Below are positions 3,229 to 62,339 of a DNA stretch of 64,000 nt, piece by piece. Each line of letters opens with the position of its first letter. Position 1 is the first letter of the stretch. The notes under the pieces were generated by a model, which did not search any database, was not told the origin of the DNA, and was given only the letters and a program-made list of their open reading frames with translations. The position numbers were made by a program, and so were the translations under genes. The stretch spans positions 27,098 through 91,097 of the forward strand of contig JAVHYA010000009.1 of the NCBI GenBank assembly GCA_031119395.1, in the 5' to 3' direction. The stretch comes from Pseudomonadota bacterium (lineage in GTDB: Bacteria; Pseudomonadota; Gammaproteobacteria; Burkholderiales; Burkholderiaceae_C).

Positions 3229-4026
3229 ATGCGCGCAGACCAGTTGCTCGTCGACCGCGGACTGGCGGTCTCCCGTTCGCAGGCGGCCCGGCTCATCGCT
3301 GGCGGCCTGCGCTGGCGCCTGCATGCCGGTGAGGCGTGGCGGGCCGTCGCCAAGAACGGCGATGCGGTGCCCGACGGGGCCGAGCTGGAACTCGCCGACG
3401 CCGCCGAGGCGCGCTACGTCTCGCGCGGCGGGCTGAAGCTCGAGGGCGCGCTGCATGCCACGGGCATCGAGGTCGCAGGCCGACTGTGCCTGGACGTGGG
3501 GCAATCCACCGGCGGCTTCACCGACTGCCTGCTGCAGCGCGGCGCTGCGCATGTGGTGGGCATCGATGTCGGCCATGGCCAGTTGCACGAGCGGCTGCGC
3601 GCCGACGCGCGGGTGACGGCGGTCGAGCGCGTGAACGCACGCACGCTGAATGCTCCTGATTTGATAGCTGCCTGCGCAGCCGGGGTGGGCGCTGGAGCCC
3701 GATCCGACCCTGAACACGGGCTGGCCTTCGACCTGATCGTCGGCGACCTGTCCTTCATCTCGCTCACGCTGGTGCTGCCCGCGCTGGCGCCGCTGCTGGC
3801 GACAGGCGGCGACCTGCTGATGCTGGTCAAGCCGCAGTTCGAGCTGCAGCCCGCGCAGATCGGCAAGGGCGGCATCGTGCGCGACCCGGCGCTGTACGCC
3901 GTGGTCGAAGAGCGGGTGCGCGTTGCATGCGAAGGCGCCGGCCTGCGCGTGCTGAAATGGCTGGACAGTCCGATCGCGGGAGGCGACGGCAACCGCGAGT
4001 TCTTCGTCCACGCGGCGCATGCGTGA
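3229..4026 (+). CDS. tlyA: TlyA-family RNA methyltransferase, carrying an in-frame repeat segment
   Basis: MRADQLLV S4-like start, YVSRGGLKL, LDVGQSTGGFTDCLLQRGA, DLSFISL, LVKPQFE, GGDGNREF. Confidence 0.93.
   Translation: MRADQLLVDRGLAVSRSQAARLIAGGLRWRLHAGEAWRAVAKNGDAVPDGAELELADAAEARYVSRGGLKLEGALHATGIEVAGRLCLDVGQSTGGFTDCLLQRGAAHVVGIDVGHGQLHERLRADARVTAVERVNARTLNAPDLIAACAAGVGAGARSDPEHGLAFDLIVGDLSFISLTLVLPALAPLLATGGDLLMLVKPQFELQPAQIGKGGIVRDPALYAVVEERVRVACEGAGLRVLKWLDSPIAGGDGNREFFVHAAHA
3651..3714 (+). repeat. REP-like family A copy inside tlyA
   Basis: TGCTCCTGATTTGATAGCTGCCTGCGCAGCCGGGGTGGGCGCTGGAGCCCGATCCGACCCTGAA aligns with the intergenic copies. Confidence 0.85.
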
Positions 4027-4069
4027 CACGGACACCCCCACAACGACAAGACACGAGAGGACCCTGGCG

Positions 4070-4915
4070 ATGGCCACCCCCGAACGTTTGCCCCTGAGTT
4101 TCGAGTTCTTCCCACCCAAGACGCCCGAAGGCGTGGTCAAGCTGCGTGCCGTGCGCCAGCAGCTGTACGCCTGGCGGCCCGAGTTCTGCTCGGTCACCTA
4201 TGGCGCGGGCGGCTCCACGCAGGCCGGCACCTTCGGCGCCGTGCAGGAGATCCTGGCCGAAGGCGTGGATGCGGCGAGCCATTTCTCCTGCATCGGCGCC
4301 ACGCGCGACACCGTGCGCACGCAGCTCGCCGAGCTCAAGGGCATGGGCGTGCGCCGGCTGGTGGCCCTGCGCGGCGACCTGCCCAGCGGCTACGGCGTGG
4401 GCGGCGAGTTCCACTACGCGAGCGACCTGGTGCGCTTCATCCGCGAGGAATGCGGCGACGACTTCCGCATCGAAGTGGCCTGCTATCCCGAGGTGCACCC
4501 GCAGGCCCGCTCGGCCGGGGCCGACCTGCAGGCCTTCGCCACCAAGGTGAAGGCGGGCGCCCATTCGGCGATCACCCAGTACTTCTTCAGCCCGGACGCG
4601 TATTTCCGCTTCGTGGACGATGCGCGTCGGCTCGGCATCGACGTGCCGATCGTGCCGGGCATCATGCCCATCACCAGTTCGACCCAGCTGATGCGCTTCT
4701 CGGACGCCTGCGGCGCCGAGATCCCGCGCTGGATCCGGCTGCGGCTGCAGGGCTTCGGCGACGACACGGCCTCGATCAAGGCCTTCGGCCTGGAGGTGGT
4801 GACGCGGCTGGTGGAGCAGTTGCAGGCCGGCGGTGCACCGTCGATCCACTTCTACACGATGAACCAGGCTGCGGCGACGCTGGGCGTGTTGCAGGGCCTG
4901 GGCTGGCGCGCATGA
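4070..4915 (+). CDS. metF: 5,10-methylenetetrahydrofolate reductase
   Basis: SFEFFPPKT, SVTYGAGGST, ALRGD, VACYPEVHP, ITQYFF, HFYTMN; GAGAGG RBS before ATG 4070. Confidence 0.96.
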   Translation: MATPERLPLSFEFFPPKTPEGVVKLRAVRQQLYAWRPEFCSVTYGAGGSTQAGTFGAVQEILAEGVDAASHFSCIGATRDTVRTQLAELKGMGVRRLVALRGDLPSGYGVGGEFHYASDLVRFIREECGDDFRIEVACYPEVHPQARSAGADLQAFATKVKAGAHSAITQYFFSPDAYFRFVDDARRLGIDVPIVPGIMPITSSTQLMRFSDACGAEIPRWIRLRLQGFGDDTASIKAFGLEVVTRLVEQLQAGGAPSIHFYTMNQAAATLGVLQGLGWRA

Positions 4916-8515: not shown

Positions 8516-9967
8516 ATGAGCGCACCGACGCCCGCCACCCACGATCCGTCGACCAGTTCCGCCGACCGCCGAGTGCTCCTGTGGCTGGTCGCCATCGGCT
8601 TCTTCATGCAGACGCTGGATGCGACCATCATCAACACCGCGCTCCCGGCGATGGCCGCGAGCCTGGGCGAAAGCCCGCTGCGCATGCAATCGGTGATCGT
8701 GGCCTATTCGCTGACGATGGCGATGCTCATCCCGGCCTCCGGCTGGCTGGCCGACCGCTTCGGCACGCGGCGGGTGTTCATGCTGGCGATCGCCCTGTTC
8801 TCGCTCGGCTCGCTGGCCTGTGCGGGCTCTCGCGGCCTGGGCGAACTGGTGGCCGCGCGCGTGCTGCAGGGCCTGGGCGGCGCGCTGCTGCTGCCGGTCG
8901 GGCGGCTGTCGGTGCTGCGCACCTTCCCGCGCGGCGAGTTCCTGCAGGCGATGAGCTTCGTTGCCATTCCGGGCCTCATCGGGCCGCTGCTGGGCCCGAC
9001 GCTCGGCGGCTGGCTGGTGCAGTATGCGTCGTGGCACTGGATCTTCCTCATCAACCTGCCAGTGGGGCTCATCGGCCTCGTCGCCACGCAGCGCTTCATG
9101 CCCGACGCGCGGGCCGAGCAGACCCGCCGTTTCGACCTCTGGGGCTACGCGCTGCTGGCCTTCGGCATGGTCGCGATCTCGCTGGCCATCGAGGGGGGCT
9201 CCGGCCTGGGCATGCGCCAGGCCGGCTCGCTGGTGCTGGGCGTCTTCGGCTTCGCGGCGCTGGTGGTGTACTGGCTGCACGCGGTGCGTCATCCGCAGCC
9301 GCTGTTCTCGACCCAGCTGTTCCGCGTGCGCACGCTGTCGGTGGGGCTGCTGGGCAACCTGTTCTGCCGGCTGGGCAGCGGCGCGATGCCCTTCCTGATC
9401 CCGATCTCGCTGCAGATCTCGCTGGGCTACTCGCCGCTGCAGGCGGGGCTGATGATGCTGCCCACCGCGCTGGCCGGCATGGCCATGAAGCGCGTGGCCA
9501 CGCCGCTCATCCTGCGCTTCGGCTACCGCAACGTGCTGGTGGGCAACACCGCGATCATCGGCCTGCTGATGGCCAGCTTCGCCCTGGCGACGCCGGGCGA
9601 GCCGATCTGGCTGCGCGTGCTGCAGCTGGCAGCCTTCGGCGCCTTCAATTCGCTGCAGTTCACGGCCATGAACACCATCACGCTGAAGGACCTGGACGGC
9701 GCCAGCGCCAGCAGCGGCAACAGCCTGCTGTCGATGGTGCAGATGCTGGCGATGAGCCTGGGCGTGGCCGTGGCCGGCGCGGTGCTGTCGGGCTTCAGTG
9801 CGGCCTTCGGCGGGACCGGCACGCCAGGCGCTGCGCTGGAAGCCTTCCAGGCCACCTTCGTGACGGTGGGGCTGATCACGCTGGCGTCGGCCGCGGTGTT
9901 CTGGCAGCTGCCCGCCGAGGCGCGGGCGCCGCAACTTGATGGCCCGGAAGTGTCCGGGCACGGCTGA
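8516..9967 (+). CDS. DHA2-type MFS efflux transporter (MdtD-like)
   Basis: FFMQTLDATIINTALP, GWLADRFGTRRVF, GPLLGPTLGG, WHWIFLINLPVG; about 14 hydrophobic segments. Confidence 0.93.
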   Translation: MSAPTPATHDPSTSSADRRVLLWLVAIGFFMQTLDATIINTALPAMAASLGESPLRMQSVIVAYSLTMAMLIPASGWLADRFGTRRVFMLAIALFSLGSLACAGSRGLGELVAARVLQGLGGALLLPVGRLSVLRTFPRGEFLQAMSFVAIPGLIGPLLGPTLGGWLVQYASWHWIFLINLPVGLIGLVATQRFMPDARAEQTRRFDLWGYALLAFGMVAISLAIEGGSGLGMRQAGSLVLGVFGFAALVVYWLHAVRHPQPLFSTQLFRVRTLSVGLLGNLFCRLGSGAMPFLIPISLQISLGYSPLQAGLMMLPTALAGMAMKRVATPLILRFGYRNVLVGNTAIIGLLMASFALATPGEPIWLRVLQLAAFGAFNSLQFTAMNTITLKDLDGASASSGNSLLSMVQMLAMSLGVAVAGAVLSGFSAAFGGTGTPGAALEAFQATFVTVGLITLASAAVFWQLPAEARAPQLDGPEVSGHG

Positions 9968-9968
9968 T

Positions 9969-10032
9969 TGCTCTGTTTTTGATAGCTGCTTGCGCCCATC
10001 CGGCGGGCGTTGCAGCCACTTTTGATTCGAAA
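9969..10032 (+). repeat. REP-like family A copy between convergent MFS and anmK
   Basis: TGCTCTGTTTTTGATAGCTGCTTGCGCCCATCCGGCGGGCGTTGCAGCCACTTTTGATTCGAAA. Confidence 0.85.
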
Positions 10033-10034
10033 AC

Positions 10035-13992: not shown

Positions 13993-14013
13993 TTCCCGCC
14001 GAGCTGCGCGATT

Positions 14014-14078
14014 TGCTCATCTTTTGATAGCTGGTCGCGCAGGCAGGGCGCGCTCTGACGCCCGATTTCGTTCAGAAA
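14014..14078 (+). repeat. REP-like family A copy after tyrS
   Basis: TGCTCATCTTTTGATAGCTGGTCGCGCAGGCAGGGCGCGCTCTGACGCCCGATTTCGTTCAGAAA. Confidence 0.8.
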
Positions 14079-14096
14079 ACCTGCGGCGATGACAGG

Positions 14097-14117
14097 AAAG
14101 GGGCCCTCGGGCCCCTT
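14097..14117 (-). terminator. Hairpin terminator between convergent tyrS and OmpA-family genes
   Basis: AAAGGGGCCC-TC-GGGCCCCTT. Confidence 0.6.
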
Positions 14118-14148
14118 GCTCGTCATGCGGCGCGTGCCACGGGTGCGG

Positions 14149-16374: not shown

Positions 16375-16811
16375 GGGCCGTGCTGCAGCGCGTGAGCGAG
16401 GCGCGCGTGGAGGTCGGCGGCGAGGTGGTCGGGCGCATCGGCCACGGCCTGCTGGTGCTGGTGTGCGCCGAGCGGGGTGACACCGAGGCCGCCGGCGAGC
16501 GCCTGCTGGCCAAGATCCTGAAACTTCGGATCTTCAGCGACGAGGCCGGCAAGATGAACCGCAGCGTGCAGGACGTGGGCGGCGGCCTGCTGCTGGTGAG
16601 CCAGTTCACGCTCGCCGCCGACGTGAGCGGCGGCAACCGGCCCAGCTTCACCGGCGCGGCGCCGCCCGACGAGGGCCGCCGGCTCTACGAGCTGTTCGTC
16701 GCGCAGGCGCGCGCGGCGCATCCGGACGTGGCGACGGGCATCTTCGCGGCCGACATGAAGGTGCACCTGGTCAACGACGGGCCGGTCACCATTCCGCTAC
16801 AGATTTCATAG
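16371..16811 (+). CDS. dtd: D-aminoacyl-tRNA deacylase
   Basis: [35 protein letters not shown]. Confidence 0.96.
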
Positions 16812-16858
16812 CTGCTGGCGCAACTGGGCCGGGCGCTGCAGCCCGATTCGACGCTCAA
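16795..16858 (+). repeat. REP-like family A copy; supplies the dtd stop codon and marks the break in the methyltransferase remnant
   Basis: CGCTACAGATTTCATAGCTGCTGGCGCAACTGGGCCGGGCGCTGCAGCCCGATTCGACGCTCAA. Confidence 0.85.
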
Positions 16859-17075
16859 TCGTCGGCACGCGCTGCCGCGCTTCGTCCAGCCGGGTGGCGC
16901 AGAGCTCGAGGGCGACGACCGACAGCCCGGCGCCGACCAGCACGGCCGTGTCGCGGCCGGGGCCGCAGCCCAGCTCGAGCACCGGGGCGCCCGCGGCGTC
17001 GGCGACGCTCGCCTTCAGCGGCGGCAGCCAGCGTGGCAGCCAGTCGTCGGGGCCGTCGCCCGGGTCGTTCTCCAC
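16806..17075 (-). pseudogene. Truncated class I SAM-dependent methyltransferase
   Basis: GTG start; VLELGCGPGRDTAVL (motif I) and VVALEL; only about 89 aa, ending in antisense repeat sequence. Confidence 0.7.
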
Positions 17076-17079
17076 GGCT

Positions 17080-17619: not shown

Positions 17620-17703
17620 GGTCAGTGCACGTTCGAGGAAAAAAGGGCGCGAGCGCCCGTCCGGCCTGCGCAGACAGCGACGAATTGCATGGCAGTCACG
17701 GCC

Positions 17704-20864: not shown

Positions 20865-21446
20865 ATGATCGGCAAACTCACTGGCACCCTCTCCGAACGC
20901 AACCCGCCCCAGGTCGTCATCGATTGCCACGGCGTGGGCTACGAGGTCGACGTGCCGATGAGCACCTTCTACAACCTGCCGCAGGCAGGCGAGAAGGTGT
21001 CGCTGCTCACGCACTTCGTGGTGCGCGAGGATGCGCAGATCCTGTACGGCTTCGGGACGGCCGACGAGCGGGCGGCGTTCCGCCAGCTCATCAAGATCGC
21101 CGGGGTGGGCCCGCGCACGGCGCTGGGGGTGCTCTCGGGCATGAGCGTCAACGAACTGGCGCAGGCGGTGTCGTTGCAGGAGGCGGGCCGGCTGGTCAAG
21201 ATTCCCGGCATCGGCAAGAAGACCGCCGAGCGCCTGCTGCTGGAGCTCAAGGGCAAGCTGGGTGACGCGCTGGGTGCAGGGGCGGGCGCCGCGCAACCGG
21301 CCAGTGACGCGCAGACCGACATCCTGCAGGCGCTGCTCGCGCTCGGTTACAGCGACAAGGAAGCGGCGGCCACGCTCAAGACGCTGCCCAAGGATGTGGG
21401 CGTGAGCGAGGGCATCAAGCTGGCCCTCAAGGCCCTGGCCAAATAG
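20865..21446 (+). CDS. ruvA: Holliday junction branch migration protein RuvA
   Basis: [37 protein letters not shown]. Confidence 0.98.
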
Positions 21447-21475: not shown

Positions 21476-21508
21476 AAGAAAAAGCCCGCGCGAGCGGGCT
21501 TTTTCCTT
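21476..21508. terminator. Bidirectional terminator between ruvA and opgH
   Basis: AAGAAAAAGCCCGC-GCGA-GCGGGCTTTTTCCTT. Confidence 0.85.
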
Positions 21509-21570
21509 GGGTGGCGGATCGGGCCGGAATGCCCGCCCCGCGGGCACCACCAGCTAACGATGCCGTCGCA

Positions 21571-23580
21571 TCAGCTGGCCAGCAGCGACTTCGGCTGGGC
21601 CAGGCGGTCGGCGTGCATCCAGGCGCGGCGCAGCACGGCGGGCGAGCGCGACTCCTCGGGGATCAGCAGGAAGTTCGCTTCGCGCATGCTGGTCCCCAGC
21701 GCGATCTGGCTGGTCACGACGGCCATCGGAATGGCCAGCAGCAGGGGCAGGGCGACGGGCATCAGCCACACCAGGGCACTGGCGTCGATGAGGGCCACGG
21801 CCACACCCAGGGCCGCCACGATGCCGCTCATGGGCAGCAGGCGGGCGGCGGCTTCGCGCCACGGCACGGCGGCGGCTTCCCGCGGGGGCGACTTCCATTC
21901 CAGCTTGATGCCGGTCAGGGCCACGACCACGAAGAGCGAATGGGCCAGCATGCGCACGGGGGCCTGGACGATCGCCATGGCGCTCTCGAGCACGGCGCTC
22001 TTGAGCAGGCTGGCCACGCCGCCGTATTGCTTCTGCTCGCCGCGCATCAGCACGGCCGTGATGCCCAGGATGCGGGGCAGGAACAGCAGGCACAGGGTCC
22101 ACAGCCACAGGCCGGCCAGCTCCATCGGCATCACCATCCAGTGCTCGACCAGGCTCGAGCCGGTCAGCCACAGGGCGGTGCCCAGGGTCAGGAAGGCCAG
22201 CCACAGGGGTGCCGACACATAGGCCATGGTGCCGGTGACGAACATCGCGCGGTGGACCGGGGCGATGCCGGGTTCGGCCATCAGGCGGGCGTTCTGCAGG
22301 TTGCCCTGGCACCAGCGGCGGTCACGCTGCAGTTCGGCCAGCAGGTCCGGCGGTTGCTGCTCGTAGCTGCCGACCAGGTCGGACACCAGCCACACGTGGT
22401 AGCCGGCACGGCGCATCAGGGCGGCCTCGACGAAGTCGTGCGACATGATGCCGCCCGACATGCCGCCGGTGCCCTTGATCGGGGCCAGCGCGCAGTGCTT
22501 CATGAAGGGCTCGACGCGGATGATGGCGTTGTGGCCCCAGTAGTGCGACTCGCCGAGCTGCCAGAACTGCATGCCCAGGGTGAACAGGCGGCCGGTCACG
22601 CGGCTGGCGAACTGCTGGGCGCGGGCGTGCAGCGTCACGTGGCCGATGGCCTGCGTGGCGGTCTGGATGATGCCGGCGCTCGGGTTGGCTTCCATCAGCT
22701 TGACCATCGAGGTCAGGCAGTCGCCGCTCATCACGGAGTCGGCGTCGAGCACGACCATGTAGCGGTAGTCCTTGCCCCAGCGGCGGCAGAAGTCGGCCAC
22801 GTTGCCGGCCTTGCGGTGCGTGCGGCGGGTGCGCAGGCGGTAGTAGACCTCGACCTGCGGCTGGTTGGGGTGCTCGGCCAGGGCGGCGCGCAGCTCTTCC
22901 CAGGCGGCACGTTCGGCCTTGGCGATGTCGGGGTTGTAGCTGTCCGACAGCACGAACACGTCGAACTGCTGTGCGTGGCCGGTGTTGGCCACCGATTCGC
23001 AGGTGGCGCGCAGGCCGGCGAACACGGTGGCGACGTCCTCGTTGCAGATCGGCATGATGATCGCCGTGCGTGCCTCGGGGTTCATCGGATGATTCGCCAC
23101 CTGCTTGGCCGACAGCGCGTGCTTGTCGCCGCGCACCGAGACGTAGAAGCCCATCAGCGCCGTCACGAAGCCGGTCACGACCCAGCCGGAGAGCAGGCCG
23201 TACAGGCCGATCTGGCCGTACTCGAGCCAGAGGTTGTCGTAGTCGGGCTGCACCTGAGCGAACAGCGTCGAGGCCATCACCGTGCTGAGCAACGCCAGCA
23301 GCATGAAGACCGCGCGGCGCTGCTTGGCGGCGCGTTCCCAGGGCTGCTTCGGGAAATGCGCGACCTCGGGCGCCGACTGGCGGCCGCCCGCGCCGAGCTT
23401 GAGCAGCAGGGCCGTGCCGATGCTGTTCCAGAACCCGCGCCAGGGACGCGGCGTCATCGAGCCGCGGTTGACGGGCGGGGCCGTGACCGAGTTCGGGTGG
23501 CGCTCTTCGCGTACCGGGCTGCGGTGCGAGAAGTCGGCCGGGGTCAGGACCTTCAGCTGGGAGAATTCGTTCGGCTTCAT
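21571..23580 (-). CDS. opgH: Glucans biosynthesis glucosyltransferase H (GT2)
   Basis: IMPICNED, RKAGNVADFC, VLDADSVM, YWGHNAIIR, SHDFVEAALM, QRDRRWCQGN; GAAGGA RBS before MKPNEF. Confidence 0.93.
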   Translation of the reverse strand: MKPNEFSQLKVLTPADFSHRSPVREERHPNSVTAPPVNRGSMTPRPWRGFWNSIGTALLLKLGAGGRQSAPEVAHFPKQPWERAAKQRRAVFMLLALLSTVMASTLFAQVQPDYDNLWLEYGQIGLYGLLSGWVVTGFVTALMGFYVSVRGDKHALSAKQVANHPMNPEARTAIIMPICNEDVATVFAGLRATCESVANTGHAQQFDVFVLSDSYNPDIAKAERAAWEELRAALAEHPNQPQVEVYYRLRTRRTHRKAGNVADFCRRWGKDYRYMVVLDADSVMSGDCLTSMVKLMEANPSAGIIQTATQAIGHVTLHARAQQFASRVTGRLFTLGMQFWQLGESHYWGHNAIIRVEPFMKHCALAPIKGTGGMSGGIMSHDFVEAALMRRAGYHVWLVSDLVGSYEQQPPDLLAELQRDRRWCQGNLQNARLMAEPGIAPVHRAMFVTGTMAYVSAPLWLAFLTLGTALWLTGSSLVEHWMVMPMELAGLWLWTLCLLFLPRILGITAVLMRGEQKQYGGVASLLKSAVLESAMAIVQAPVRMLAHSLFVVVALTGIKLEWKSPPREAAAVPWREAAARLLPMSGIVAALGVAVALIDASALVWLMPVALPLLLAIPMAVVTSQIALGTSMREANFLLIPEESRSPAVLRRAWMHADRLAQPKSLLAS

Positions 23581-28907: not shown

Positions 28908-28921
28908 GGTGCAACTCCCGT

Positions 28922-28985
28922 TGCTATGGAATCAATAGCTGCTCGCGCCCGTACGGCGGGCGCTGCGGCCACTTTTGGCTTGAAA
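28922..28985 (+). repeat. REP-like family A copy upstream of miaB
   Basis: TGCTATGGAATCAATAGCTGCTCGCGCCCGTACGGCGGGCGCTGCGGCCACTTTTGGCTTGAAA. Confidence 0.87.
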
Positions 28986-29002
28986 AAAAGGAGTGGCGCG
29001 GC

Positions 29003-29464
29003 TCAGCGCGCCTCGTTCTCGGCGGCGGAGACGAAGGGCCAGAAGTTCAGGAACGGCTTGTTCAGCTGCGCACGCTCGGCGCTGGCTTCGGTGGGCGTGA
29101 GGATCCACACGTCGCTCACCAGCCCGGCCGCGTCGCGGCGGTAGTTCACCGCCAGATACTGGCCGGTGATGGTGGCCGGCTGGATGATCATGTTCTGCGT
29201 GTTGCGGATGCGCGCGCCGGGCGCCAGCCGTTCGGCGACGCCGTCGAGCTGCATCTCGGGGAAGCCGGTCACCACCATCTTCCCGCGCAGGGTGTTGATC
29301 GGGAAGTTGCGCCCGCCCAGGGCGGCTTCGTTCTGCGTCTGCGGGATCGGGTTCTGCGCCCAGGCATTCAGGCCGAAAAGGCCTGCAGCGCCCGCCAGCA
29401 TTGCGCGGGCAGCTATGGTTTTGAGAGCAATGGGGACGGTGGGGCAGCGGTTCATGGGGTTCAT
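29003..29464 (-). CDS. Exported hypothetical protein whose signal peptide is repeat-encoded
   Basis: Signal-like ALKTIAARAMLAGAAGLFGLNAWA; globular C-terminal part with normal codon bias. Confidence 0.75.
   Translation of the reverse strand: MNPMNRCPTVPIALKTIAARAMLAGAAGLFGLNAWAQNPIPQTQNEAALGGRNFPINTLRGKMVVTGFPEMQLDGVAERLAPGARIRNTQNMIIQPATITGQYLAVNYRRDAAGLVSDVWILTPTEASAERAQLNKPFLNFWPFVSAAENEAR
29367..29429 (-). repeat. REP-like family A copy encoding a signal peptide
   Basis: Minus strand TGCTCTCAAAACCATAGCTGCCCGCGCAATGCTGGCGGGCGCTGCAGGCCTTTTCGGCCTGAA. Confidence 0.85.
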
Positions 29465-32039: not shown

Positions 32040-37047
<5,008 letters not shown>

Positions 37048-37051
<4 letters not shown>

Positions 37052-45564: not shown

Positions 45565-46233
45565 TCAGCGCGGGGCGGAGGCCGGCGGCGCAGCGGCTCG
45601 TGCGCCCGCCGGCGGCAGCGTGATGTCCACCCGGCGCTCGCCCTGGGGTGGGTGCGGGAAGCCCTGCAGCGCCGCCTGGAACATCACCGGCAGCACGGCG
45701 CGGCTGTCGCCGTAGGGCCCGTCGTTGCGGGCCCGGGTCTCGTAGACCACCTGGTTCGACGGCAGCTCGCGCATCACCACGGCGACCTCGCGGCCGTACC
45801 AGGGGTCGGCCGGCGGCCCGAAGCCGGGGCCCCAGCCCCAGCCGCCGTACCACGCGCTGCCGCGCCAGCCCCGGCCATAGCCCAGGCCGCCGCCCCATCC
45901 CGGGCCCCAGCCCGGACCCCCCCAGGGATCGGCCCAGGGCGACAGCTCGGGCGTGACCCGGGCCGTCACCTGGACGGCATAGCGGGGCTGGGCGTCGTCC
46001 CTTCGCAGGCCGACCGCCGCCAGCGCGGGCGCGGCCATCGCCTCCACCTCGTCCTGCGCCGCGCCGTGGGCCTGCTGGGAGGGCAGGCGATCGAACCGGT
46101 AGGTGGGCTCGGCCGGCAGGGCGCCCAGCTGTGAAAAGCTGCGGACCTGGCTGTCGACCGTCCAGGAGGTCGCGCAGCCGCCCAGTGCCAGGGAGGTTGC
46201 TATCAAAAAAGGAGCGTACAGCGCACGTCGCAT
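45565..46233 (-). CDS. Lipoprotein (DUF4136-like)
   Basis: Lipobox LGGC; TYRF, Gly/Trp-rich loop, VVYETRA, AALQGFP. Confidence 0.8.
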   Translation of the reverse strand: MRRALYAPFLIATSLALGGCATSWTVDSQVRSFSQLGALPAEPTYRFDRLPSQQAHGAAQDEVEAMAAPALAAVGLRRDDAQPRYAVQVTARVTPELSPWADPWGGPGWGPGWGGGLGYGRGWRGSAWYGGWGWGPGFGPPADPWYGREVAVVMRELPSNQVVYETRARNDGPYGDSRAVLPVMFQAALQGFPHPPQGERRVDITLPPAGARAAAPPASAPR

Positions 46234-46261
46234 AAGGCCTCCAGGCGCAAATTGCCTGAAA
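46198..46261 (+). repeat. Degenerate REP-like family A copy overlapping the lipoprotein start
   Basis: TGCTATCAAAAAAGGAGCGTACAGCGCACGTCGCATAAGGCCTCCAGGCGCAAATTGCCTGAAA. Confidence 0.65.
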
Positions 46262-48461: not shown

Positions 48462-49589
48462 ATGACCCAGGAGCCCGGCGCCTCGAGCGCCTCCCCCTCG
48501 GCCAGCCCCTCGGACCGGATGGCCCGGATTATCGACGCCGCCCTCGCGCGCGCCGGCGGCTGGCTGCCCTTCGACCAGTTCATGGCGCTGGCCCTGTACG
48601 CGCCCGGCGCCGGCTACTACGCGCACGGCAGCCGCAAGTTCGGCCGCATGCCCGCCTCGGGCAGCGACTTCGTGACGGCGCCCGAGCTCACGCCGCTCTT
48701 CGGCCAGACCGTGGCCGAGCAGGTGCGCGAAGCGCTGGCGCAGACCGGCACGCAGGAGGTCTGGGAGTTCGGGGCCGGCTCGGGCGCCCTCGCGGCGCAG
48801 TTGCTGCAAGCCCTGGGCGACGCGGTGCGGCGCTACACCATCGTCGACCTGTCGGGCAGCCTGCGCGCCCGCCAGCAGGAGGCCCTGGCCGCCTGGGGCG
48901 ACCGGGTGCGGTGGGTGGACCAGCTGCCCGAGCGCTTCGAGGGCGTGGTCGTCGGCAACGAGGTGCTCGACGCCATGCCGGTCAAGCTGCTGGTGCGCAA
49001 GGAGCGCCGCTGGAACGAGCGCGGCGTCTACCGCACGCCCGAGGGGCCGCTGGCCTGGATCGACTGGCCCACCGAGCTGCGCCCGCCGGTCGAGATCGAG
49101 AGCGACCACGACTACCTCACCGAGATCCATCCCCAGGCCAGGGCCTGGATCGGCACGCTGGCCGAACGGCTGCAGCGCGGCGCGGTCTTCCTCTTCGACT
49201 ATGGCTTCCCCGAAGCGGAGTACTACCACCCGCAGCGCCACATGGGCACCGTGATGTGCCACCAGGGCCACCGGGCCGACAGCGACCCGCTCGGCGCCGT
49301 GGGCGACAAGGACATCACCGCCCACGTCGACTTCACCGGCATCGCGCTGGCCGGGCAGGACGCCGGTCTGCACGTGCTGGGCTACACCAGCCAGGCGCGC
49401 TTTCTCATCAACACCGGTCTGCTATCGAAAATGGAGCAGTCCACGCCCGCCCAGCGGGCGCTGGCGGCCCATTTGATCCATGAACACGAGATGGGCGAGC
49501 TGTTCAAGGTGATCGGCTTCGCGGCCGCCGGCAGCGTGCCGTGGGACGCGCTGGGCTTTCGCGAAGGCGACCGCAGCCACACCCTTTGA
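48462..49589 (+). CDS. SAM-dependent methyltransferase (MidA/NDUFAF7 family)
   Basis: FDQFMALALYAPGAGYY, DFVTAPE, EFGAGSG, GNEVLDAMP, DYG, DITAHVDF, EMGELFKV. Confidence 0.93.
   Translation: MTQEPGASSASPSASPSDRMARIIDAALARAGGWLPFDQFMALALYAPGAGYYAHGSRKFGRMPASGSDFVTAPELTPLFGQTVAEQVREALAQTGTQEVWEFGAGSGALAAQLLQALGDAVRRYTIVDLSGSLRARQQEALAAWGDRVRWVDQLPERFEGVVVGNEVLDAMPVKLLVRKERRWNERGVYRTPEGPLAWIDWPTELRPPVEIESDHDYLTEIHPQARAWIGTLAERLQRGAVFLFDYGFPEAEYYHPQRHMGTVMCHQGHRADSDPLGAVGDKDITAHVDFTGIALAGQDAGLHVLGYTSQARFLINTGLLSKMEQSTPAQRALAAHLIHEHEMGELFKVIGFAAAGSVPWDALGFREGDRSHTL
49420..49484 (+). repeat. REP-like family A copy inside the MidA-type gene
   Basis: TGCTATCGAAAATGGAGCAGTCCACGCCCGCCCAGCGGGCGCTGGCGGCCCATTTGATCCATGAA. 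Confidence 0.75.
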
Positions 49590-51734: not shown

Positions 51735-53248
51735 TCTGCTATTGAATTCGTAGCGCTTCGCGCAAGCGGGGCGGGCGTTGCAGCCCGATTCGGCTCCGAA
51801 ACCGGGGTGCGCGCCGCCACTGCCGACGCGATCTCCCCGAGTCGCCGCAGCCCCGCCTCGATGGCCGGCGACCAGGGCCAGCCGCAGTTGATGCGCAGGC
51901 AGTGGTCGAAGCGCGCCGAGTTCGAGAACAGCGTGCCCGGCGCGAACAGGATGTGCTCGCGCAGCGCGGCGTCGAACACCGGCACCGAGGACAGCCGCTC
52001 GGGCAGCTCCACCCACAGCTGAAGCCCGCCCGGCGGCAGGTTGAGGCGCGTGCCGGCCGGAAAGTGCTGGGCGATGGCGTCGGCCGTGCGTTCGCGCTGC
52101 ACGCGCAGCCGGTCGCGCAGCTGGCGCAGGTGCCGGTCGTAGGCCCCGGTGGCCATGAACTGGCCCGCCGCCCACTGCGAGAGTTCCTCGTTGCTGCGCG
52201 TCTGTGCGTACTTGAGCATCTCCACCCGTGCGTGCCAGCGGCCGGCCGTGATCCAGCCCAGCCGCAGCCCCGGCGCCAGCACCTTGTGCAGCGAGGCGCA
52301 GTGGATCACGTGGCCGCCGCGGTCGAAGGCCTTGATCGCGCGCGGCGGCACCGGGGCGTCGAGCAGCTCGGTGTACGTGTCGTCCTCGATGAGCGGGATG
52401 CCGTGCCGTTCGCACAGGCGCACCAGCCGCTCCTTGTGCGCGTCGGGCATCACGCTGCCCAGCGGGTTCTGCAGGTGCGGCACCACGATGACCGCCTTGA
52501 TGTTGCCGTAGGCGCCGATCGCCATCTCCAGCGCCTCCACCGACAGGCCGGTCTGCGGGCTGGTGGGGATCTCCAGCGCGCGCATGCCCAGGCTCTCCAG
52601 CACCTGCAGCAGGCCGTAGAAGGTGGGCGATTCCACCGCCACCGTGTCGCCCGGCTGCGCCACCGCGCGCAGCGCGAGGTTCAGCGCCTCGATGCAGCCG
52701 TTGGTGGGCAGCACCTCGTCGGGCGAGAGGGTCATGCCGGCCTGCAGCGCCCGCTTGGCCACCGCTTCGCGAAAGGGCGTGCGGCTGCGCGAGGGCGCGG
52801 CGGTGGTCAGCATCTCCGGCCGCTGGCGCAAAAGGCGCGCCATCGCGGCGCGCAGCGCCTCGCCGGGGTACAGCGCGGGGGCGCCGCGGGCGATCGACAG
52901 GTCCAGCCGCACCTCGCCGTAGCGCCGGCGCATGACGAAGTCCGACACCTTCTCGTGGATGCCGACGAACTGCGCCGGGTCGGGCGCGCGGTCGGTGGCC
53001 GGCTCGTCCATCGGCGGCGTCGCCAGGCGGCGCGGGCGGCGCACGAAGTAGCCCGATCGGTCGCGCGCCTCGGCCCAGCCCTCGCTCTCGAGCGTGCGGC
53101 ACAGCTGCAAGGCGGTCGACAGGCTCACGCCGTGGCGCTTCATCAGATCGCGCAGCGAGGGCAGGCGGTCGCCGGGCTGCAGCGATCCGGCGCGGATCGC
53201 ATCGAGGTAGTGCTGGGCCAGCTGGCGGTAGCGCGGGGGCGTGTCCAT
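51707..53248 (-). CDS. MocR/GntR-family PLP-dependent transcriptional regulator
   Basis: GDRLPSLR, GVSLST, GYFV; TNGCIEA, VESPTFY, QNPLG, IEDDTY, SLHKVLAPGLRLGW. Alternative start at 53293. Confidence 0.93.
   Translation of the reverse strand: MDTPPRYRQLAQHYLDAIRAGSLQPGDRLPSLRDLMKRHGVSLSTALQLCRTLESEGWAEARDRSGYFVRRPRRLATPPMDEPATDRAPDPAQFVGIHEKVSDFVMRRRYGEVRLDLSIARGAPALYPGEALRAAMARLLRQRPEMLTTAAPSRSRTPFREAVAKRALQAGMTLSPDEVLPTNGCIEALNLALRAVAQPGDTVAVESPTFYGLLQVLESLGMRALEIPTSPQTGLSVEALEMAIGAYGNIKAVIVVPHLQNPLGSVMPDAHKERLVRLCERHGIPLIEDDTYTELLDAPVPPRAIKAFDRGGHVIHCASLHKVLAPGLRLGWITAGRWHARVEMLKYAQTRSNEELSQWAAGQFMATGAYDRHLRQLRDRLRVQRERTADAIAQHFPAGTRLNLPPGGLQLWVELPERLSSVPVFDAALREHILFAPGTLFSNSARFDHCLRINCGWPWSPAIEAGLRRLGEIASAVAARTPVSEPNRAATPAPLARSATNSIADQSTSASAA
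51737..51801 (+). repeat. REP-like family A copy read antisense as the MocR C-terminal tail
   Basis: TGCTATTGAATTCGTAGCGCTTCGCGCAAGCGGGGCGGGCGTTGCAGCCCGATTCGGCTCCGAAA. Confidence 0.8.
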
Positions 53249-53464
53249 GGGGTTGTCCGTGTGCGCCGGGGGCTGGGCGGCGCCTGTGTCCATCGTGCGC
53301 CGCACCGGCGTGCGGCAACAGATGCAGATCGGGCCGAAACGACCATAACAGATGGTCCCGGCGGCCGGCTGCTGCGGTGCAGAAAGGGGGGCCATGTGCC
53401 TGTTTCCGGAAGGCGCGGATTTCTACGATGACCTCACCTCCCACCCCCGCCGAAAGAAGCTGCC

Positions 53465-57823: not shown

Positions 57824-58747
57824 ATGGACCTCGACGCCCTGCGCATCTACCTGCTGGTGGCCGAATCGGCCAGCTTCACCCGTGCCGCCGAGCGGCTGGG
57901 CCTGACGCGGGCGCGCGTGTCCGCCGTCGTGCAGCAACTGGAAGCCGAGCTGGGCACGCGCCTCCTGCAGCGCACGACGCGCAGCGTGCGCGTGACGCCC
58001 GACGGGCAGCTCTTCGCCGAACGCGCCCAGGCGCTGGTGGGCGAGGCCGACGAGCTGCAGGCGCTGTTCCAGCGCGTGCCGGCGGCGTTGCGCGGGCGGC
58101 TGCGGGTCGACATGCCCGGCCAGCTGTCGAGCCAGGTGCTGATTCCGCGGCTGCCCGAGTTCCTCGCCGCCCACCCGCAGATCGAGCTGGAGCTCAGCAG
58201 CACGGACCGCCGGGTCGACCTGGTGCACGAGGGCTTCGACTGCGTGATCCGCGCCGGCGCGCTGCGCGAGTCGGGGCTGGTGGCGCGGCCCCTGGGCCTG
58301 CTGTCGCAGATCAACGTGGCCAGCCCGGCCTACATCGCCGCCCACGGCATGCCGCGCACGCTGGAGGACCTGGCGCGGCATCGCCTGGTGCGCTATTCGT
58401 CCACGCTGGGCGGCGCGGCGCCCGGATGGGAGTACACGACGCCCGAGGGACCGCAGATGCTGCCGATGGCCGCGGTGCTCACCGTCAACAACACCTTCGC
58501 CTACGAGTCGGCGTGCCTCGCGGGGCTGGGCATCATCCAGGCGCCCGCGCTGGGTCTGCAGGGGTGGATCGACAGCGGCCGGCTGGTGGAACTGCTGCCC
58601 CGGTACCGCGCCGATCCGCTGCCGGTGACGCTGCTCTACGCCCACCGCCGCCAGGTCGCGCGGCGCGTGCAGGCCTTCATGGACTGGGTGGCGGCGGTGA
58701 TGGCCGAGGTGCTGTCGCCGGCGCCCGATCTGCTATCGAAACAATAG
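57824..58747 (+). CDS. LysR-family regulator (CrgA-like)
   Basis: SFTRAAERL HTH, RLLQRTTR, LRGRLRVD, VDLVHEGFDCVIR. Confidence 0.95.
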   Translation: MDLDALRIYLLVAESASFTRAAERLGLTRARVSAVVQQLEAELGTRLLQRTTRSVRVTPDGQLFAERAQALVGEADELQALFQRVPAALRGRLRVDMPGQLSSQVLIPRLPEFLAAHPQIELELSSTDRRVDLVHEGFDCVIRAGALRESGLVARPLGLLSQINVASPAYIAAHGMPRTLEDLARHRLVRYSSTLGGAAPGWEYTTPEGPQMLPMAAVLTVNNTFAYESACLAGLGIIQAPALGLQGWIDSGRLVELLPRYRADPLPVTLLYAHRRQVARRVQAFMDWVAAVMAEVLSPAPDLLSKQ

Positions 58748-58793
58748 CTGCTCGCGCCCGCCGGATGGGCGCTGCAGCCTCATTCGGCTCGAA
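58731..58793 (+). repeat. REP-like family A copy supplying the LysR stop codon
   Basis: TGCTATCGAAACAATAGCTGCTCGCGCCCGCCGGATGGGCGCTGCAGCCTCATTCGGCTCGAA. Confidence 0.88.
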
Positions 58794-58826
58794 TCGGTGG
58801 GCCGCGGCGCCGTGGGGCGCGGGTGC

Positions 58827-60215
<1,389 letters not shown>

Positions 60216-60252: not shown

Positions 60253-60993
60253 TCAGGACCGCAGCAGCGTGTCGCGCAGCGTCTGCAGCCAGGCGTGCAC
60301 GGCCTGCGGGCCCTCCAGCCGCTGCGCCGCGCGCGTGCTGCCCGGGCCGATCTTGATGCCCATGCCGCCGGGGCGCGACTGCACCACGGCGAAGCCGGTC
60401 TCGTCGGTGGTGTCGTCGCCCGCGAAGACCGGGTGGCGACCCTCGAAGGGCGCTTCCTTCAGGAAGGCATCGATCGCGATGCCCTTGTTCACGCCGGCCG
60501 GCTTGATCTCGACCACGCACTTGCCGTGCAGCAGTTCGAACTGCGGCTGCGTGCCGACCACCTCGGCCATGGTGTCCAGGCACAGCTGCTCCAGCGCCGG
60601 CGCCAGCCGGTAGTGCAGCGCGATGGCGGCATGCTTGCGCTCCACCAGCAGGCCGGCGTGGCGCGAGGCCAGGGCGTTGGCGGCGTCGAGCACGCCGGTG
60701 AGGTCGGGCGCGGCGGCTTCCTGCATGCGGCCGTCGGCATCGCGGCGCTGCACGCCGTGTTCACCGGCGGCCGGCAGGCGCAGGGGCGCGAGGAAACGGT
60801 CCAGCACGTCGATGGGGCGGCCCGACACGACGGCCAGCGCGCCGCCCAGGAGCTCGTGCAGTTCGATCAGCAGCGGCACCAGGCCGGGAGGCACTTCGAC
60901 GGCTTCGGGTGTTTCGGCGATCGCGACGAGCGTGCCGTCGAAATCGAGGAAGAGGGCCGCATCGCGGCCCGGGAGTGGCGGGGACGTCTGCAT
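60253..60993 (-). CDS. otsB: Trehalose-6-phosphate phosphatase
   Basis: LFLDFDGTL, VSGR, GEHG, VNKG, FAGDDTTDE. Confidence 0.96.
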   Translation of the reverse strand: MQTSPPLPGRDAALFLDFDGTLVAIAETPEAVEVPPGLVPLLIELHELLGGALAVVSGRPIDVLDRFLAPLRLPAAGEHGVQRRDADGRMQEAAAPDLTGVLDAANALASRHAGLLVERKHAAIALHYRLAPALEQLCLDTMAEVVGTQPQFELLHGKCVVEIKPAGVNKGIAIDAFLKEAPFEGRHPVFAGDDTTDETGFAVVQSRPGGMGIKIGPGSTRAAQRLEGPQAVHAWLQTLRDTLLRS

Positions 60994-61079
60994 CTGCGGG
61001 CACCTTAGCACGGGCCGCGGCGCCCGCGCGTCGGTCAAAGCCGGCAGTTGCCGCGGGCCCGCGCGGCTGCGCGAGAGGG

Positions 61080-62339
61080 TCAGAGCCCGGCCGCCGCCAC
61101 GGCCGTCACGCGCGCGGCATGGATCGCCTGCCCGATCTGCGGCCCCTTGGCGCCGCGCGCCGCCGCCTCGCGCGCGATGCCCTCGGTGGCCACCGACTGC
61201 GCGGCCTCCAGAGCGCGCAGCAGGCGCGGCCGCTGCGGGTAGGGCGCGTCTTCCAGGCCCAGGCGTCCACGGGCATCGCACTCGCAGGCCAGCAGCGCCG
61301 CGTCGAAGCGCTGCGGCTTGCGGAAGGCATCGCAGCGCTCGAGCAGGCGCACCAGCGCGGCGGCCTCGAAGCCTTCGCTGCGGTGGATGTTGCCGTGCTC
61401 GCGCGCCACCACCTCGGCCAGTTCGCGCACCTCGGTCGGCACGCGCCAGCGCTCGCACACGCCGGCCAGCAGCCGGGCGCTGCGCTGCTCGTGGCCGATG
61501 TGGCGCGGCAGCACGTCGGCCGGCGTGGTGGCCTTGCCCAGGTCGTGCGTGAGGCAGGCGAAGCGCACCGGCAGGGGCGCCGCCAAGCGCGCGCTCATGT
61601 CCAGCACCATCATCAGGTGCACGCCGGTGTCGCCCTCGGGGTGGTGCTGCGGCGGCTGCGGGACGCCCCACAGCGCGTCGACCTCGGGCAGCAGCACCTT
61701 CAGCGCCCCGCAGGCGCGCAGCACCTCGAACATGCGCGAGGGCTTCGCCTCCATCAGCCCGCGCGCGAGCTCCTGCCACACGCGCTCCGGCACGAGGGCA
61801 TCGACCTCGCCGTCGGCGACCATGCCGCGCATCAGCGCCATCGTCTCGGGCGCCACGGTGAAGTCGTGGAAGCGGGCCGCGAAGCGCGCCAGCCGCAGGA
61901 TGCGCACCGGGTCTTCGCGGAAGGCGTCGGTCACATGGCGCAGCACCTTGCGCTGCAGGTCGCCGCGGCCGCCATGGGGGTCGATCAGCGCCGCAGTTTC
62001 AGGGTCGAAATCGCCCGTGGCGCCCGCCACGCCTGCGGGAACCGCTATGGAATTGATAGTGAGGTCGCGCCGCGCGAGGTCCTGCTCCAGCGTCACGTCG
62101 GGCGCCGTGTGGACGGCGAAGCCGCGGTAGCCGGGGCCGCTCTTGCGCTCGGTGCGGGCCAGCGCGTGCTCCTCGTGCGTCTGCGGATGCAGGAACACGG
62201 GGAAGTCGCGCCCGACCGGCACGAAGCCCTGCGCCACCATCTCATCGGGCGTGGCGCCGACCACGACCCAGTCGCGGTCGGACACGCTCAGGCCGAGCAG
62301 GCGGTCGCGCACGGCGCCGCCGACGAGGTAGATCTCCAT
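61080..62339 (-). CDS. cca: Multifunctional CCA-adding enzyme with HD domain, carrying a repeat-derived insertion
   Basis: YLVGGAVRDRLLG, DRDWVV, DLARRDLTINSIA, FREDPVRILR, HPEGDTGVH, THDLGK. Confidence 0.97.
   Translation of the reverse strand: MEIYLVGGAVRDRLLGLSVSDRDWVVVGATPDEMVAQGFVPVGRDFPVFLHPQTHEEHALARTERKSGPGYRGFAVHTAPDVTLEQDLARRDLTINSIAVPAGVAGATGDFDPETAALIDPHGGRGDLQRKVLRHVTDAFREDPVRILRLARFAARFHDFTVAPETMALMRGMVADGEVDALVPERVWQELARGLMEAKPSRMFEVLRACGALKVLLPEVDALWGVPQPPQHHPEGDTGVHLMMVLDMSARLAAPLPVRFACLTHDLGKATTPADVLPRHIGHEQRSARLLAGVCERWRVPTEVRELAEVVAREHGNIHRSEGFEAAALVRLLERCDAFRKPQRFDAALLACECDARGRLGLEDAPYPQRPRLLRALEAAQSVATEGIAREAAARGAKGPQIGQAIHAARVTAVAAAGL
61997..62061 (-). repeat. REP-like family A copy inside cca
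   Basis: Minus strand CACTATCAATTCCATAGCGGTTCCCGCAGGCGTGGCGGGCGCCACGGGCGATTTCGACCCTGAAA. Confidence 0.75.

Follow-up and report, generated by a model that had tools for sequence, protein, structure and literature searches.

The stretch of DNA analysed here (64,000 nt, hereafter the window) spans positions 27,098 to 91,097 of contig JAVHYA010000009.1 in the assembly GCA_031119395.1, which belongs to a bacterium of the Burkholderiales; the named records closest to it are those of 'Comamonadaceae bacterium ALPHA2B' and of relatives of Polaromonas, Variovorax, and Acidovorax. Genes such as tlyA, tyrS, dtd, miaB, and cca are arranged along the window, and between, across, and inside them lie copies of a 66-nt palindromic repeat. 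An earlier note on this DNA had listed 11 copies, likened them to repetitive extragenic palindromic (REP) sequences, and proposed that the repeat is repeatedly recruited into protein sequence. The repeat family itself is confirmed. Most of its copies in the host genome (5.14 Mb, 70% GC) lie between genes, and those read in frame inside genes keep the spelling of the repeat against the codon bias of the host, which points to maintenance at the DNA level. Genes were called with a codon-usage caller trained on the host genome (4718 genes, 89% of the sequence), and those of the window were checked with Pfam.

A profile hidden Markov model (HMM) was seeded in nhmmer with the 11 proposed copies and then rebuilt from 544 genome-wide matches. 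With this core HMM and a threshold of E≤1e-3, the host genome holds 623 copies, which score about 40-50 bits, and the first search found them balanced between the strands (314 and 308). The same model retrieved nothing from the reversed genome at E≤1e-3 or E≤0.1 (best E 0.15), and only one weak match in 855 kb of two genomes of the same genus with the same composition and genes (G001 and G003). The check proposed with the earlier note, building a profile and scanning the genome and its relatives, places the family well above its reversed-genome control. The genome consensus, TTGCTATCGAATTGATAGCTGCTCGCGCCCGCCGGGCGGGCGCTGCAGGCCGATTTGGCTCGAAAA, measures 66 nt, or 22 codons, and agrees with the one proposed before, including the succession of an AT-rich 5' hairpin, a GC hairpin, and a tail. 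The core positions kept are GCT, about 10 variable positions, ATAGC, about 5 variable, GCGC, about 9 variable, GGGCG, 1 variable, and TG. The palindrome that follows (G)ATAGC reads CTGC-N2-GCGCCCG-N5-CGGGCGC-N-GCAG, and a minority of copies show GTAGC at the preceding position. Two forms of the GC hairpin are distinguished at element positions 33-35, either GCGCCCG.. (a perfect palindrome) or GCGCAGG.. (with shifted pairing), in numbers of 164 versus 83 among intergenic copies and 33 versus 32 among intragenic ones. The relative G022 shows a third form, GCGCTTG, together with CTGGAGG, while the host combines either of its two forms with CTGCAGG. Terminal inverted repeats were not found, the ends TTGCTATC and CTCGAAAA not being complementary, and neither a duplicated nor a conserved target appeared in the 12-nt flanks of the full-length intergenic copies examined.

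It could be argued that the matches inside genes are an artefact of composition or chance, that is, GC-rich DNA encoding Ala and Gly that happens to resemble the profile. Some internal matches of 21-25 bits do lie over ordinary protein segments of unchanged length, and one of the proposed copies, at 46198, fails the genome-trained model. The empty reversed genome, the single weak match in G001 and G003, and the AT-rich third codon positions of the internal copies, which run opposite to the composition of the host, leave this explanation with scarcely any probability.

Ten of the 11 copies proposed for the window were recovered by the genome-trained HMM (Table 1). The remaining one, at 46198, gave no match with this model (E>1e-3) and no counterpart was detected in the relative G015, so it is treated as doubtful. 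Two minus-strand copies, at 17630 and 21506, had been overlooked. A repeat search of the window grouped seven of the proposed copies into one family, to which the two proposed minus-strand copies were also linked. Three of the proposed copies (9968, 14013, and 28921) are purely intergenic, in agreement with the number given in the earlier note, and that at 17630 adds another.

Table 1. Copies of the 66-nt repeat and related sites in the window, with nhmmer scores and genomic context.
Feature	Position	Strand	Score (bits)	Context
Intragenic copy	3650..3715	+	49.3	tlyA 3229-4026, sense GCT frame; peptide NAPDLIAACAAGVGAGARSDPE
Intergenic copy	9968..10033	+	58.9	Fills the convergent spacer between 8573-9967(+) and 10035-11165(-); orthologous copies in G015 and G013
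Intergenic copy	14013..14078	+	43.7	Downstream of tyrS 12760-13992; present in G015
Gene-end copy	16794..16859	+	49.2	Last codons and TAG stop of dtd 16380-16811
Intergenic copy	17630..17695	-	36.8	Between convergent genes; new with respect to the earlier list
Decayed weak copy	21506..21571	-	22.1	Between convergent genes 20865-21446(+) and 21571-23580(-); new with respect to the earlier list
Intergenic copy	28921..28986	+	66.5 (window maximum)	Shortly upstream of miaB 27555-28907(-), in antisense to transcription
5'-end copy	29365..29430	-	55.4	Hypothetical gene 29003-29464(-), hydrophobic N-terminus (..IAARAMLAGAAGLFGLNAWAQ)
Doubtful copy	46198..46261	+	35 (only in the seed HMM, which contains this copy)	Antisense over the lipoprotein signal peptide of gene 45565-46233(-)
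Intragenic copy	49419..49484	+	40.2	Methyltransf_28 (MidA-like) gene 48462-49589, normally closed frame
Gene-end copy	51736..51801	+	57.4	Starts directly after the TGA of ROK-kinase gene 50802-51734
Gene-end copy	58730..58795	+	61.7	Last codons and TAG stop of LysR gene 57824-58747; Pfam-checked
cca site 2 relic	61137..61193	-		Residues ~383-401, VATEGIAREAAARGAKGPQ; recoded to GC-rich codons in the host genome
Intragenic copy	61997..62062	-	42.8	Within cca 61080-62339(-), read in the sense GCT frame; encodes TINSIAVPAGVAGATGDFDPET

The peptides that had been quoted for these copies are correct on translation, and the gene calls agree that the TAG within ATAGC serves as the stop of both dtd and the LysR gene. 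In the dtd product the Pfam domain Tyr_Deacylase spans residues 2-140 of 143. The copy at 49419 lies in a frame that the consensus closes, with its TGA and TAG positions altered (AAAATGGAGCAG) and the resulting peptide LLSKMEQSTPAQRALAAHLIHE located downstream of the end of the Methyltransf_28 domain (residue 309); the G015 version of it is nearly identical. The copy at 51736, read in antisense, constitutes the C-terminal tail of a MocR-type regulator (51707-53293, minus strand), in whose 528 residues the aminotransferase domain extends as far as residue 470. The start codon of the hypothetical gene at 29003-29464 is uncertain (29464 or 29401) and its product shows no Pfam match, while the N-terminus encoded by the repeat looks like a signal peptide.

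Across the genome, 367 of the 623 copies (59%) are intergenic, in a genome in which intergenic DNA makes up 11% of the sequence. Another 113 (~18%) are located fully within a called gene, ~108 (~17%) overlap the 3' end of a gene, and ~40 overlap a 5' end. The claim that the repeat is read in frame inside many genes stands with those 113 copies. Among the spacers, density falls from 3.1 copies per kb in convergent ones to 1.0 in tandem and 0.26 in divergent ones. Copies occur about once per 8 kb, with a mean neighbour spacing of 6.9 kb and a coefficient of variation (CV) of 0.83. Just five close pairs exist genome-wide, mostly in direct orientation, and with only 0.8% of neighbours less than 500 bp apart the copies must be regarded as singletons and not as pairs of the REPIN type (two inverted REPs forming a hairpin). 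No significant trend in orientation was found along the complete chromosome of G022 (a weak V shape, permutation p=0.088), and the relationship with local GC skew in the host genome (p=0.055) is confounded by gene orientation.

The preference for the downstream side of genes and for convergent spacers is also what would be expected if the repeat acted as transcribed RNA, be it as a terminator, as a stabiliser of mRNA 3' ends, or as a small RNA, in which case its presence inside genes would be incidental. A short T run follows the GC hairpin in many copies, and 78% of the cells in the consensus stems pair, a share that drops to 26-46% if the partners are shifted by 1-3 columns. Against this possibility, orientation with respect to the upstream gene is unbiased, with 97 copies in sense and 114 in antisense, and inside genes copies likewise take both orientations (46 sense, 68 antisense). 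No Rfam family matches the repeat at the gathering threshold. RNAalifold found just three invariant pairs, covariation in the stems of a hand-drawn three-hairpin structure, which pairs in the consensus, did not exceed that of shuffles, and G-T mismatches are about as frequent as A-C ones (405 and 360), so that G-U pairing is not favoured. On these grounds the RNA reading was dropped as very improbable. As no compensated pairs were found, the repeat most likely acts as DNA, double- or single-stranded, recognised by a protein, and the conservation of specific positions also suggests recognition of this kind.

Inside genes, the outcome depends on the frame in which the element is read. In the 114 copy-gene pairs (one of the 113 copies overlaps two called genes), the sense GCT frame is used 35 times, with the consensus peptide AIELIAARARRAGAAGRFGSK, and antisense frame 1 is used 50 times, with the consensus peptide FEPNRPAAPARRARAAINSIA; the remaining two open frames account for 15 pairs, and the two stop-containing frames for 14 in which the stops have been mutated away. 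Thus, 85 of the 114 pairs use two open frames rich in Ala, Gly, and Pro, and they give two dominant peptide families, xAxxxIAARAxxAGAAGRFGxx and xxEPNRAAAPAPxAQxAIxSIA. Read in the frames that contain stops, the element ends genes: in 34 genes the stop is the TAG within ATAGC itself, and in eight it is the TGA that precedes it. This rule, by which the frame predicts the outcome, had been proposed from the window and holds for the genome. In the consensus, GC content at third codon positions (GC3) is lowest, at 0.52, in the two frames that are preferred, which indicates that the preference reflects the harmlessness of the peptide and not its codon fit to the host. The genes concerned are housekeeping genes, including those for TlyA, CCA, AroA, LeuRS, MutL, TruB, ThiL, MacB, PBP1C, and ABC ATPases, and the copies tend to be placed in linkers, loops, and tails.

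The effect of intragenic copies on protein length is smaller than the length of the element. In line with the earlier proposal, TlyA of the repeat-bearing clade contains extra residues, with 14 more in the loop than in the sister clade and 17 more than in TlyA from M. tuberculosis. At site 1 of CCA, Ramlibacter shows TINAIAQDENGRLIDP where the host has TINSIAVPAGVAGATGDFDPETAALIDP, a gain of 12 residues, and C63_26747 is also among the genes that gain 12-17 residues. Eleven further intragenic copies, compared with G001 and G003, gave net changes of 0 (six copies), +2, +2 to +5, +5, +12 to +14, and, in a case in which a C-terminal overhang makes the alignment ambiguous, -9 to +5. None of the intragenic copies compared adds the 22 residues that a full unit encodes. 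G001 was rejected as an empty outgroup, given that it shares old intragenic events in recoded form, which makes a net change of 0 with respect to it ambiguous; other families and homologues from the Protein Data Bank (PDB) were used as references where possible.

In several of these proteins the element overlies native motifs. The clearest case is AroA, whose universal DASSASYF..GAI motif is encoded as TCT GCT AGC TAT TTC ATA GCG CTT GGC GCA ATA GCG GCG GGC. In the host, 43 of the 66 positions of the segment agree with the consensus of the repeat, but only 25 of 66 do in G001, where a segment of equal length uses GC-ending codons. AroA orthologues lacking the repeat signal keep most of the residues at the site, with equal length within the genus, while families outside Comamonadaceae are 5 residues shorter there. 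For some copies, therefore, the outcome that the earlier note had named as refuting its proposal, the same residues in orthologues lacking the repeat, was obtained. Similarly, the TINxIA motif of CCA is spelled ACTATCAATTCCATAGC, which corresponds to the first hairpin of the repeat. Of the 80 orthologous loci that were fetched, 34, belonging to several genera, gave a repeat match (E≤0.01) at this site, and in these 34 loci 3 to 6 of the 6 TINxIA codons end in A or T, whereas Variovorax and Ramlibacter have ACCATCAACGCCATCGCG. Repeat-like DNA of 17-33 bits (nhmmer) is also found at CCA site 2 in Ramlibacter, Simplicispira, Diaphorobacter, Rhodoferax, Acidovorax, and a metagenome-assembled genome of Burkholderiaceae. 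In an AlphaFold2 model of CCA with a mean predicted local distance difference test (pLDDT) of 88.9, site 1 (residues 93-114) is predicted as one native strand together with a short helix and a coil of 12 residues, and site 2 (residues 383-401) as a confident helix (pLDDT ~97), which would mean that sequence derived from the repeat is not confined to disordered loops.

The codons used inside intragenic copies are unusual for this genome, with a GC3 of 0.59 versus 0.93 in the flanks (Wilcoxon p=2e-20). This spelling extends beyond the species. For AroA, comparison with other genera yields identical AT-ending codons in 29-47% of the segment and in 2-4% of the flanks, and the rare-codon spelling is shared with G022 and G017, which belong to two other genera. 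Between G022 and the host, the diagnostic positions of the AroA copy are fixed by coding, and a single stretch is informative, CTGCAGG in the host and CCGAGGG in G022, which is not enough to track the two genome variants at this site. In contrast, G001 and G021, which lack the family, have kept the peptide and lost the spelling of the repeat through GC-rich recoding. The retention of the spelling against codon bias and across genera argues for maintenance at the DNA level and not for passive tolerance, and intragenic copies look like maintained DNA elements instead of tolerated junk insertions. Such long-term conservation of DNA spelling inside essential genes across genera is a feature that was not found described in the literature checked.

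In-frame intragenic repeats are textbook knowledge only for Rickettsia, where they are regarded as tolerated selfish DNA. By analogy, the copies studied here could be selfish insertions like those of the Rickettsia palindromic elements (RPEs), in which 66-bp units would transpose at random and the in-frame copies that land in tolerant loops would persist neutrally while decaying. The length of 22 codons, a frame usage that agrees with the removal of stop-containing frames, the gains of 12-17 residues in TlyA, CCA, and C63_26747, and the greater variability, inside the clade, of the inserted peptides than of the sequence flanking them are all in line with such a process. So is the copy at 17630 in the window, which faces a single unbroken gap of ~66 columns at the exact site in G001 (mafft alignment) and supports copying of the unit as a whole. 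Precedents are provided by RPEs (PMC10969869) and by the known intragenic REPs (PMC3733652). Nevertheless, six of the compared copies add no residue at all, and the element spells the essential native motifs SASYF..GAI in AroA and TINxIA in CCA, where a raw insertion should have destroyed the enzyme. Rare AT-ending codons are kept between genera, whereas neutral decay should have recoded them, as occurred in G001 and G021, and conservation at synonymous sites inside the AroA and CCA copies is above that of the flanks. To this must be added the lack of terminal inverted repeats, target-site duplications, or a conserved target, as well as of any sign of recent movement. Hence, selfish insertion is rather unlikely, and the earlier proposal of a repeatedly recruited, RPE-like insertion is not supported as stated for copies that are old, fixed at their sites, overlaid on native motifs, and retained in their spelling. 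The data are unlike those expected from neutral passenger insertion, and from the sequences compared they fit DNA that was copied over a native segment of partial similarity and was maintained thereafter.

The age of the copies is evident from their distribution. All 12 copies of the window occur at orthologous sites in G015 (92% nucleotide identity), including that at 21506, whose G015 orthologue is better preserved (41.7 bits). The tlyA copy is common to all six repeat-rich genomes of the genus, and, at the DNA level, Polaromonas, Acidovorax, Rhodoferax, and Simplicispira also have the copy at CCA site 1. Copies are therefore old and fixed in position. A covariance model of the repeat was run on 40 relatives. 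Within the same GTDB genus, six genomes hold at least about 100 copies (up to 121 candidates were scored per genome), seven hold none, and three only 2-8; the repeat occurs in five of nine other genera of the same bacterial family, with a patchy presence even within one genus, and this search found it in none of 16 other families of the order. When orthologous non-coding copies of the host and G015 are compared, identity is 88.9% in high-information columns, 78.1% in middle ones, and 71.6% in low-information ones, so core columns diverge 2.5 times more slowly than the other columns, and the higher identity at the former indicates that core positions are constrained.

Several local differences between relatives were observed beside window copies. 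G013 (contig C33) lacks the entire 153-nt spacer downstream of tyrS (window 13996-14148), including the repeat, while the more distant G015 has it, so that this absence is probably a deletion in G013. Next to dtd, a truncated S-adenosylmethionine methyltransferase open reading frame (ORF; 16806-17396, minus strand), matching positions 1-41 of 97 of Methyltransf_25, ends inside the repeat copy, and ~180 nt beside this copy are missing in the host genome with respect to G015, which suggests a deletion adjoining it. As for other repeats, the repeat-poor sister clade (contig C16 of G001) contains a different abundant one with the core CCGTTCGGGCTGAGCCTGTCGAAGC (16 copies in 595 kb), and one more family, which contains CGCCGGGCCGCCCCAAG, is present in the host genome (14 in 595 kb).

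The DNA uptake signals of naturally transformable bacteria have 9-12 bp cores and appear about once per kb. It is conceivable that the repeat is a self-DNA tag of this kind, spread into genes by molecular drive through competence and recombination, as the uptake sequences of Pasteurellaceae and Neisseriaceae are. The overlay of the motif on native protein segments by means of rare codons, the equal use of both orientations, a spacing slightly more even than random (the CV and the scarcity of close neighbours mentioned above), the lineage-specific variants that separate G022 from the host, and the patchy distribution within one genus all fit this possibility. On the other hand, the repeat, at 66 bp and ~40-50 bits, is several-fold longer and richer in information than any known uptake signal, and its density is roughly eight times lower. 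The intergenic gap in G001 covers the whole unit, and it is unlikely that point mutation would produce as many as 40 matching bases. In favour of the tag, natural transformation occurs in Acidovorax temperans, A. facilis, and Verminephrobacter eiseniae, where some results hint that own DNA is preferred, although the failed transformation across species may just reflect sequence divergence (PMC4212676). Taken together, the self-DNA tag is distinctly unlikely.

With respect to a protein that could recognise the repeat, the window contains neither a REP-associated tyrosine transposase (RAYT) nor any other Y1 transposase, as had been stated, and the sole Y1_Tnp match in the genome is located on contig C15. 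It corresponds to a single HUH transposase gene of the Y1 type (C15:39144-39839, 231 aa), in which the HUH motif and the catalytic Tyr are present and whose Pfam Y1_Tnp score (46.7 bits) is above the cut-off. A repeat copy lies directly 3' of its stop codon in five of the six repeat-rich genomes. In the sixth, G008, only a palindrome similar to hairpin 1 is found at that place, and a similar palindrome occurs there in other genera. The association is suggestive, and this RAYT-like protein is, judging by sequence, only a candidate for recognition of the repeat. Between this gene and gltB (C15:39840-39960) there is also a motif pair, GTGTCCCCAATT ... GAATCTGACCCCAATTAAAGCGTTTGGCA, which is conserved across genera, including repeat-poor genomes, and which may regulate gltB or may constitute the true ends that the Y1 protein recognises.

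No published description of the repeat was found, and a member from Comamonadaceae is absent from the works on related elements (PMC3733652, PMC2817692, PMC10969869), with a MITE (miniature inverted-repeat transposable element) from Polaromonas JS666 being possibly related. RPEs are the classical in-frame repeats (Ogata et al. 2000, summarised in PMC10969869). The repeat resembles them in being a dispersed palindrome, a large share of which is read in frame in unrelated housekeeping genes (113 copies) to give a family-specific peptide, and TruB carries a copy in both systems (PMC3733652). However, RPEs measure ~100-150 bp, form several families, reside in reduced AT-rich intracellular genomes, and are described as insertions, whereas a single family of 66 bp is found here in free-living hosts of 70% GC, mostly outside genes, and with gains below 22 residues. 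Compared with orthologues, its copies are not discrete insertions, since net gains range from 0 to 14 residues and the AroA and CCA motifs are overlaid; these distinctions are drawn from the published descriptions of RPEs.

The parallel with REPs is closer in terms of location. REPs with a GTAG tag donate TAG stops and are occasionally intragenic in Thauera, Xanthomonas, and other genera, with no entry for Comamonadaceae (Di Nocera 2013, PMC3733652), and no RAYT from this family is listed by Nunvar 2010 (PMC2817692). Like REPs, the repeat has hundreds of mostly extragenic copies, a GC-rich imperfect palindrome after an (A/G)TAG tag, a preference for convergent and tandem spacers downstream of genes, TAG stops provided to neighbouring genes, occasional intragenic copies, a long vertical inheritance, and, suggestively, a single-copy Y1 HUH gene adjoining one copy. 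It differs from classical REPs of 20-40 bp in its length, in its additional 5' AT-rich hairpin and 3' tail, in its mostly ATAG tag, and in that 18% of the copies are intragenic and conserved in position. Moreover, copies are singletons, without the inverted pairs that constitute REPINs or bacterial interspersed mosaic elements (BIMEs), the REPIN-RAYT system being described by Bertels & Rainey 2011 (PMC3116915), and the Y1 gene, which does not reach the NCBIfam cut-off, is accompanied by a copy on just one of its sides and is also retained where genomes are devoid of the repeat.

Uptake sequences, represented by the uptake signal sequence (USS) of Pasteurellaceae and the DNA uptake sequence (DUS) of Neisseriaceae (PMC2397512, PMC3868556), also place a signal in coding sequence through codon choice in tolerant frames, occur in both orientations and often after genes, and show lineage variants with positions conserved among relatives. 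No such sequence is known for the naturally transformable Acidovorax and Verminephrobacter (PMC4212676). The repeat departs from them in its length, in its mean spacing of 6.9 kb in place of a short core about every kb, and in the whole-unit gap of G001. Finally, intragenic MITEs, such as ERIC/RU and the QMITEs of Coxiella (Delihas 2007, PMC2759123; PMC5896051), are small non-coding repeats with open frames that sometimes extend or modify host proteins, but they are rarely intragenic and are delimited by terminal inverted repeats and target-site duplications, neither of which is present here. In summary, location, copy number, donation of stops, and the suggestive association with a Y1 gene make the repeat resemble a REP, and its in-frame reading makes it resemble an RPE. 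It fails defining tests of each of these families, as inverted pairs, clean insertions, terminal repeats, and target duplications are all missing.

On balance, the repeat is probably an old, vertically inherited REP-like DNA element of Comamonadaceae that is recognised by a protein and that enters genes by templated insertion or replacement, after which it is maintained. The family, its distribution, the frame rule, the conservation of positions and of rare codons, and length changes below 22 residues are shown by the data, whereas how the element enters genes, which protein recognises it, and what it does are inferred. Most copies sit in short spacers after genes, and the element also enters coding sequence. 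Entry would take place by a templated event that copies the element and replaces part of a similar native segment, and not by a clean 66-bp transposon insertion. Copies would survive only in frames and places in which the peptide is harmless, such as loops, linkers, tails, and signal peptides, and in stop-containing frames the element terminates the gene. Once placed, the DNA would stay near the family consensus for a very long time and resist the GC3 bias of the host, either by selection on a function exerted at the DNA level or by biased conversion from the ~600 other copies. Lineages that lose this maintenance, such as G021 and the clade of G001, would recode the segment to GC-rich codons and keep the peptide. 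Thus, of the repeat-driven protein remodelling suggested by the earlier note, what stands is a REP-like family read in frame, while recent, clean, RPE-like insertions do not.

Several observations weigh against this model. No insertion or conversion event has been caught in progress, and entry is deduced from end states. Identity at core columns (0.889) is only slightly above that of four-fold sites between the host and G015, which are 84% identical. The Y1 gene scores 70.7 bits with NCBIfam REP_Tyr_transpos, below the 80-bit cut-off, and is flanked by the repeat on the 3' side only. Furthermore, its orthologue is single-copy and intact in repeat-poor genomes, so that co-occurrence does not discriminate. 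The clade of G001 probably shares the oldest events, in which case a net change of 0 can mean that an old insertion has decayed there, and the gains of +12 to +17 residues are approximate, as loop lengths vary among distant orthologues. The gene caller is simple and its calls are uncurated. Translation of the intragenic copies is deduced from their intact frames, and the sequencing runs that hold this sequence are DNA metagenomes only.

More tentatively, the element may be a functional DNA signal kept at particular chromosomal sites by selection or directed copying, and written into essential genes where no spacer is available. It could be bound or cleaved by a nucleoid, topoisomerase, or HUH protein, or serve as a self-DNA tag for transformation. 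If this were true, the signal would, over long periods, override codon usage and shape loops, helices, tails, and stop codons, and would represent a second, family-wide layer of information over coding sequence. In-frame repeats are found here in a free-living, GC-rich family and on a larger scale than in Rickettsia, with ~110 genes in one genome, and the intragenic DNA is conserved at synonymous sites across genera inside enzymes such as AroA and CCA. If this conservation reflects function or directed conversion, the system would offer a workable case of dual coding between a DNA signal and a protein sequence, and would explain patches of rare codons and lineage-specific loops in proteins of Comamonadaceae. 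On a practical level, gene calling is affected, because stop codons, C-terminal tails, and perhaps the cores of signal peptides come from the element, and it constitutes a ready-made typing marker for these bacteria.

Some other features of the window deserve mention. The only Rfam match is an ordinary S-adenosylhomocysteine (SAH) riboswitch (RF01057, 53.4 bits) at 1624-1692 on the plus strand, upstream of the adenosylhomocysteinase gene (1874-3208). Two ORFs of 1671 and 2378 aa at 32036-44184 (minus strand) contain segments that are 70-79% identical and 8.1 kb apart, and resemble a modular synthetase. Three tandem units of 150 nt (62-71% identical) at 20406-20770 (plus strand), within the ORF 18990-20861, encode a repeated ..YRFYN..T..HFYT.

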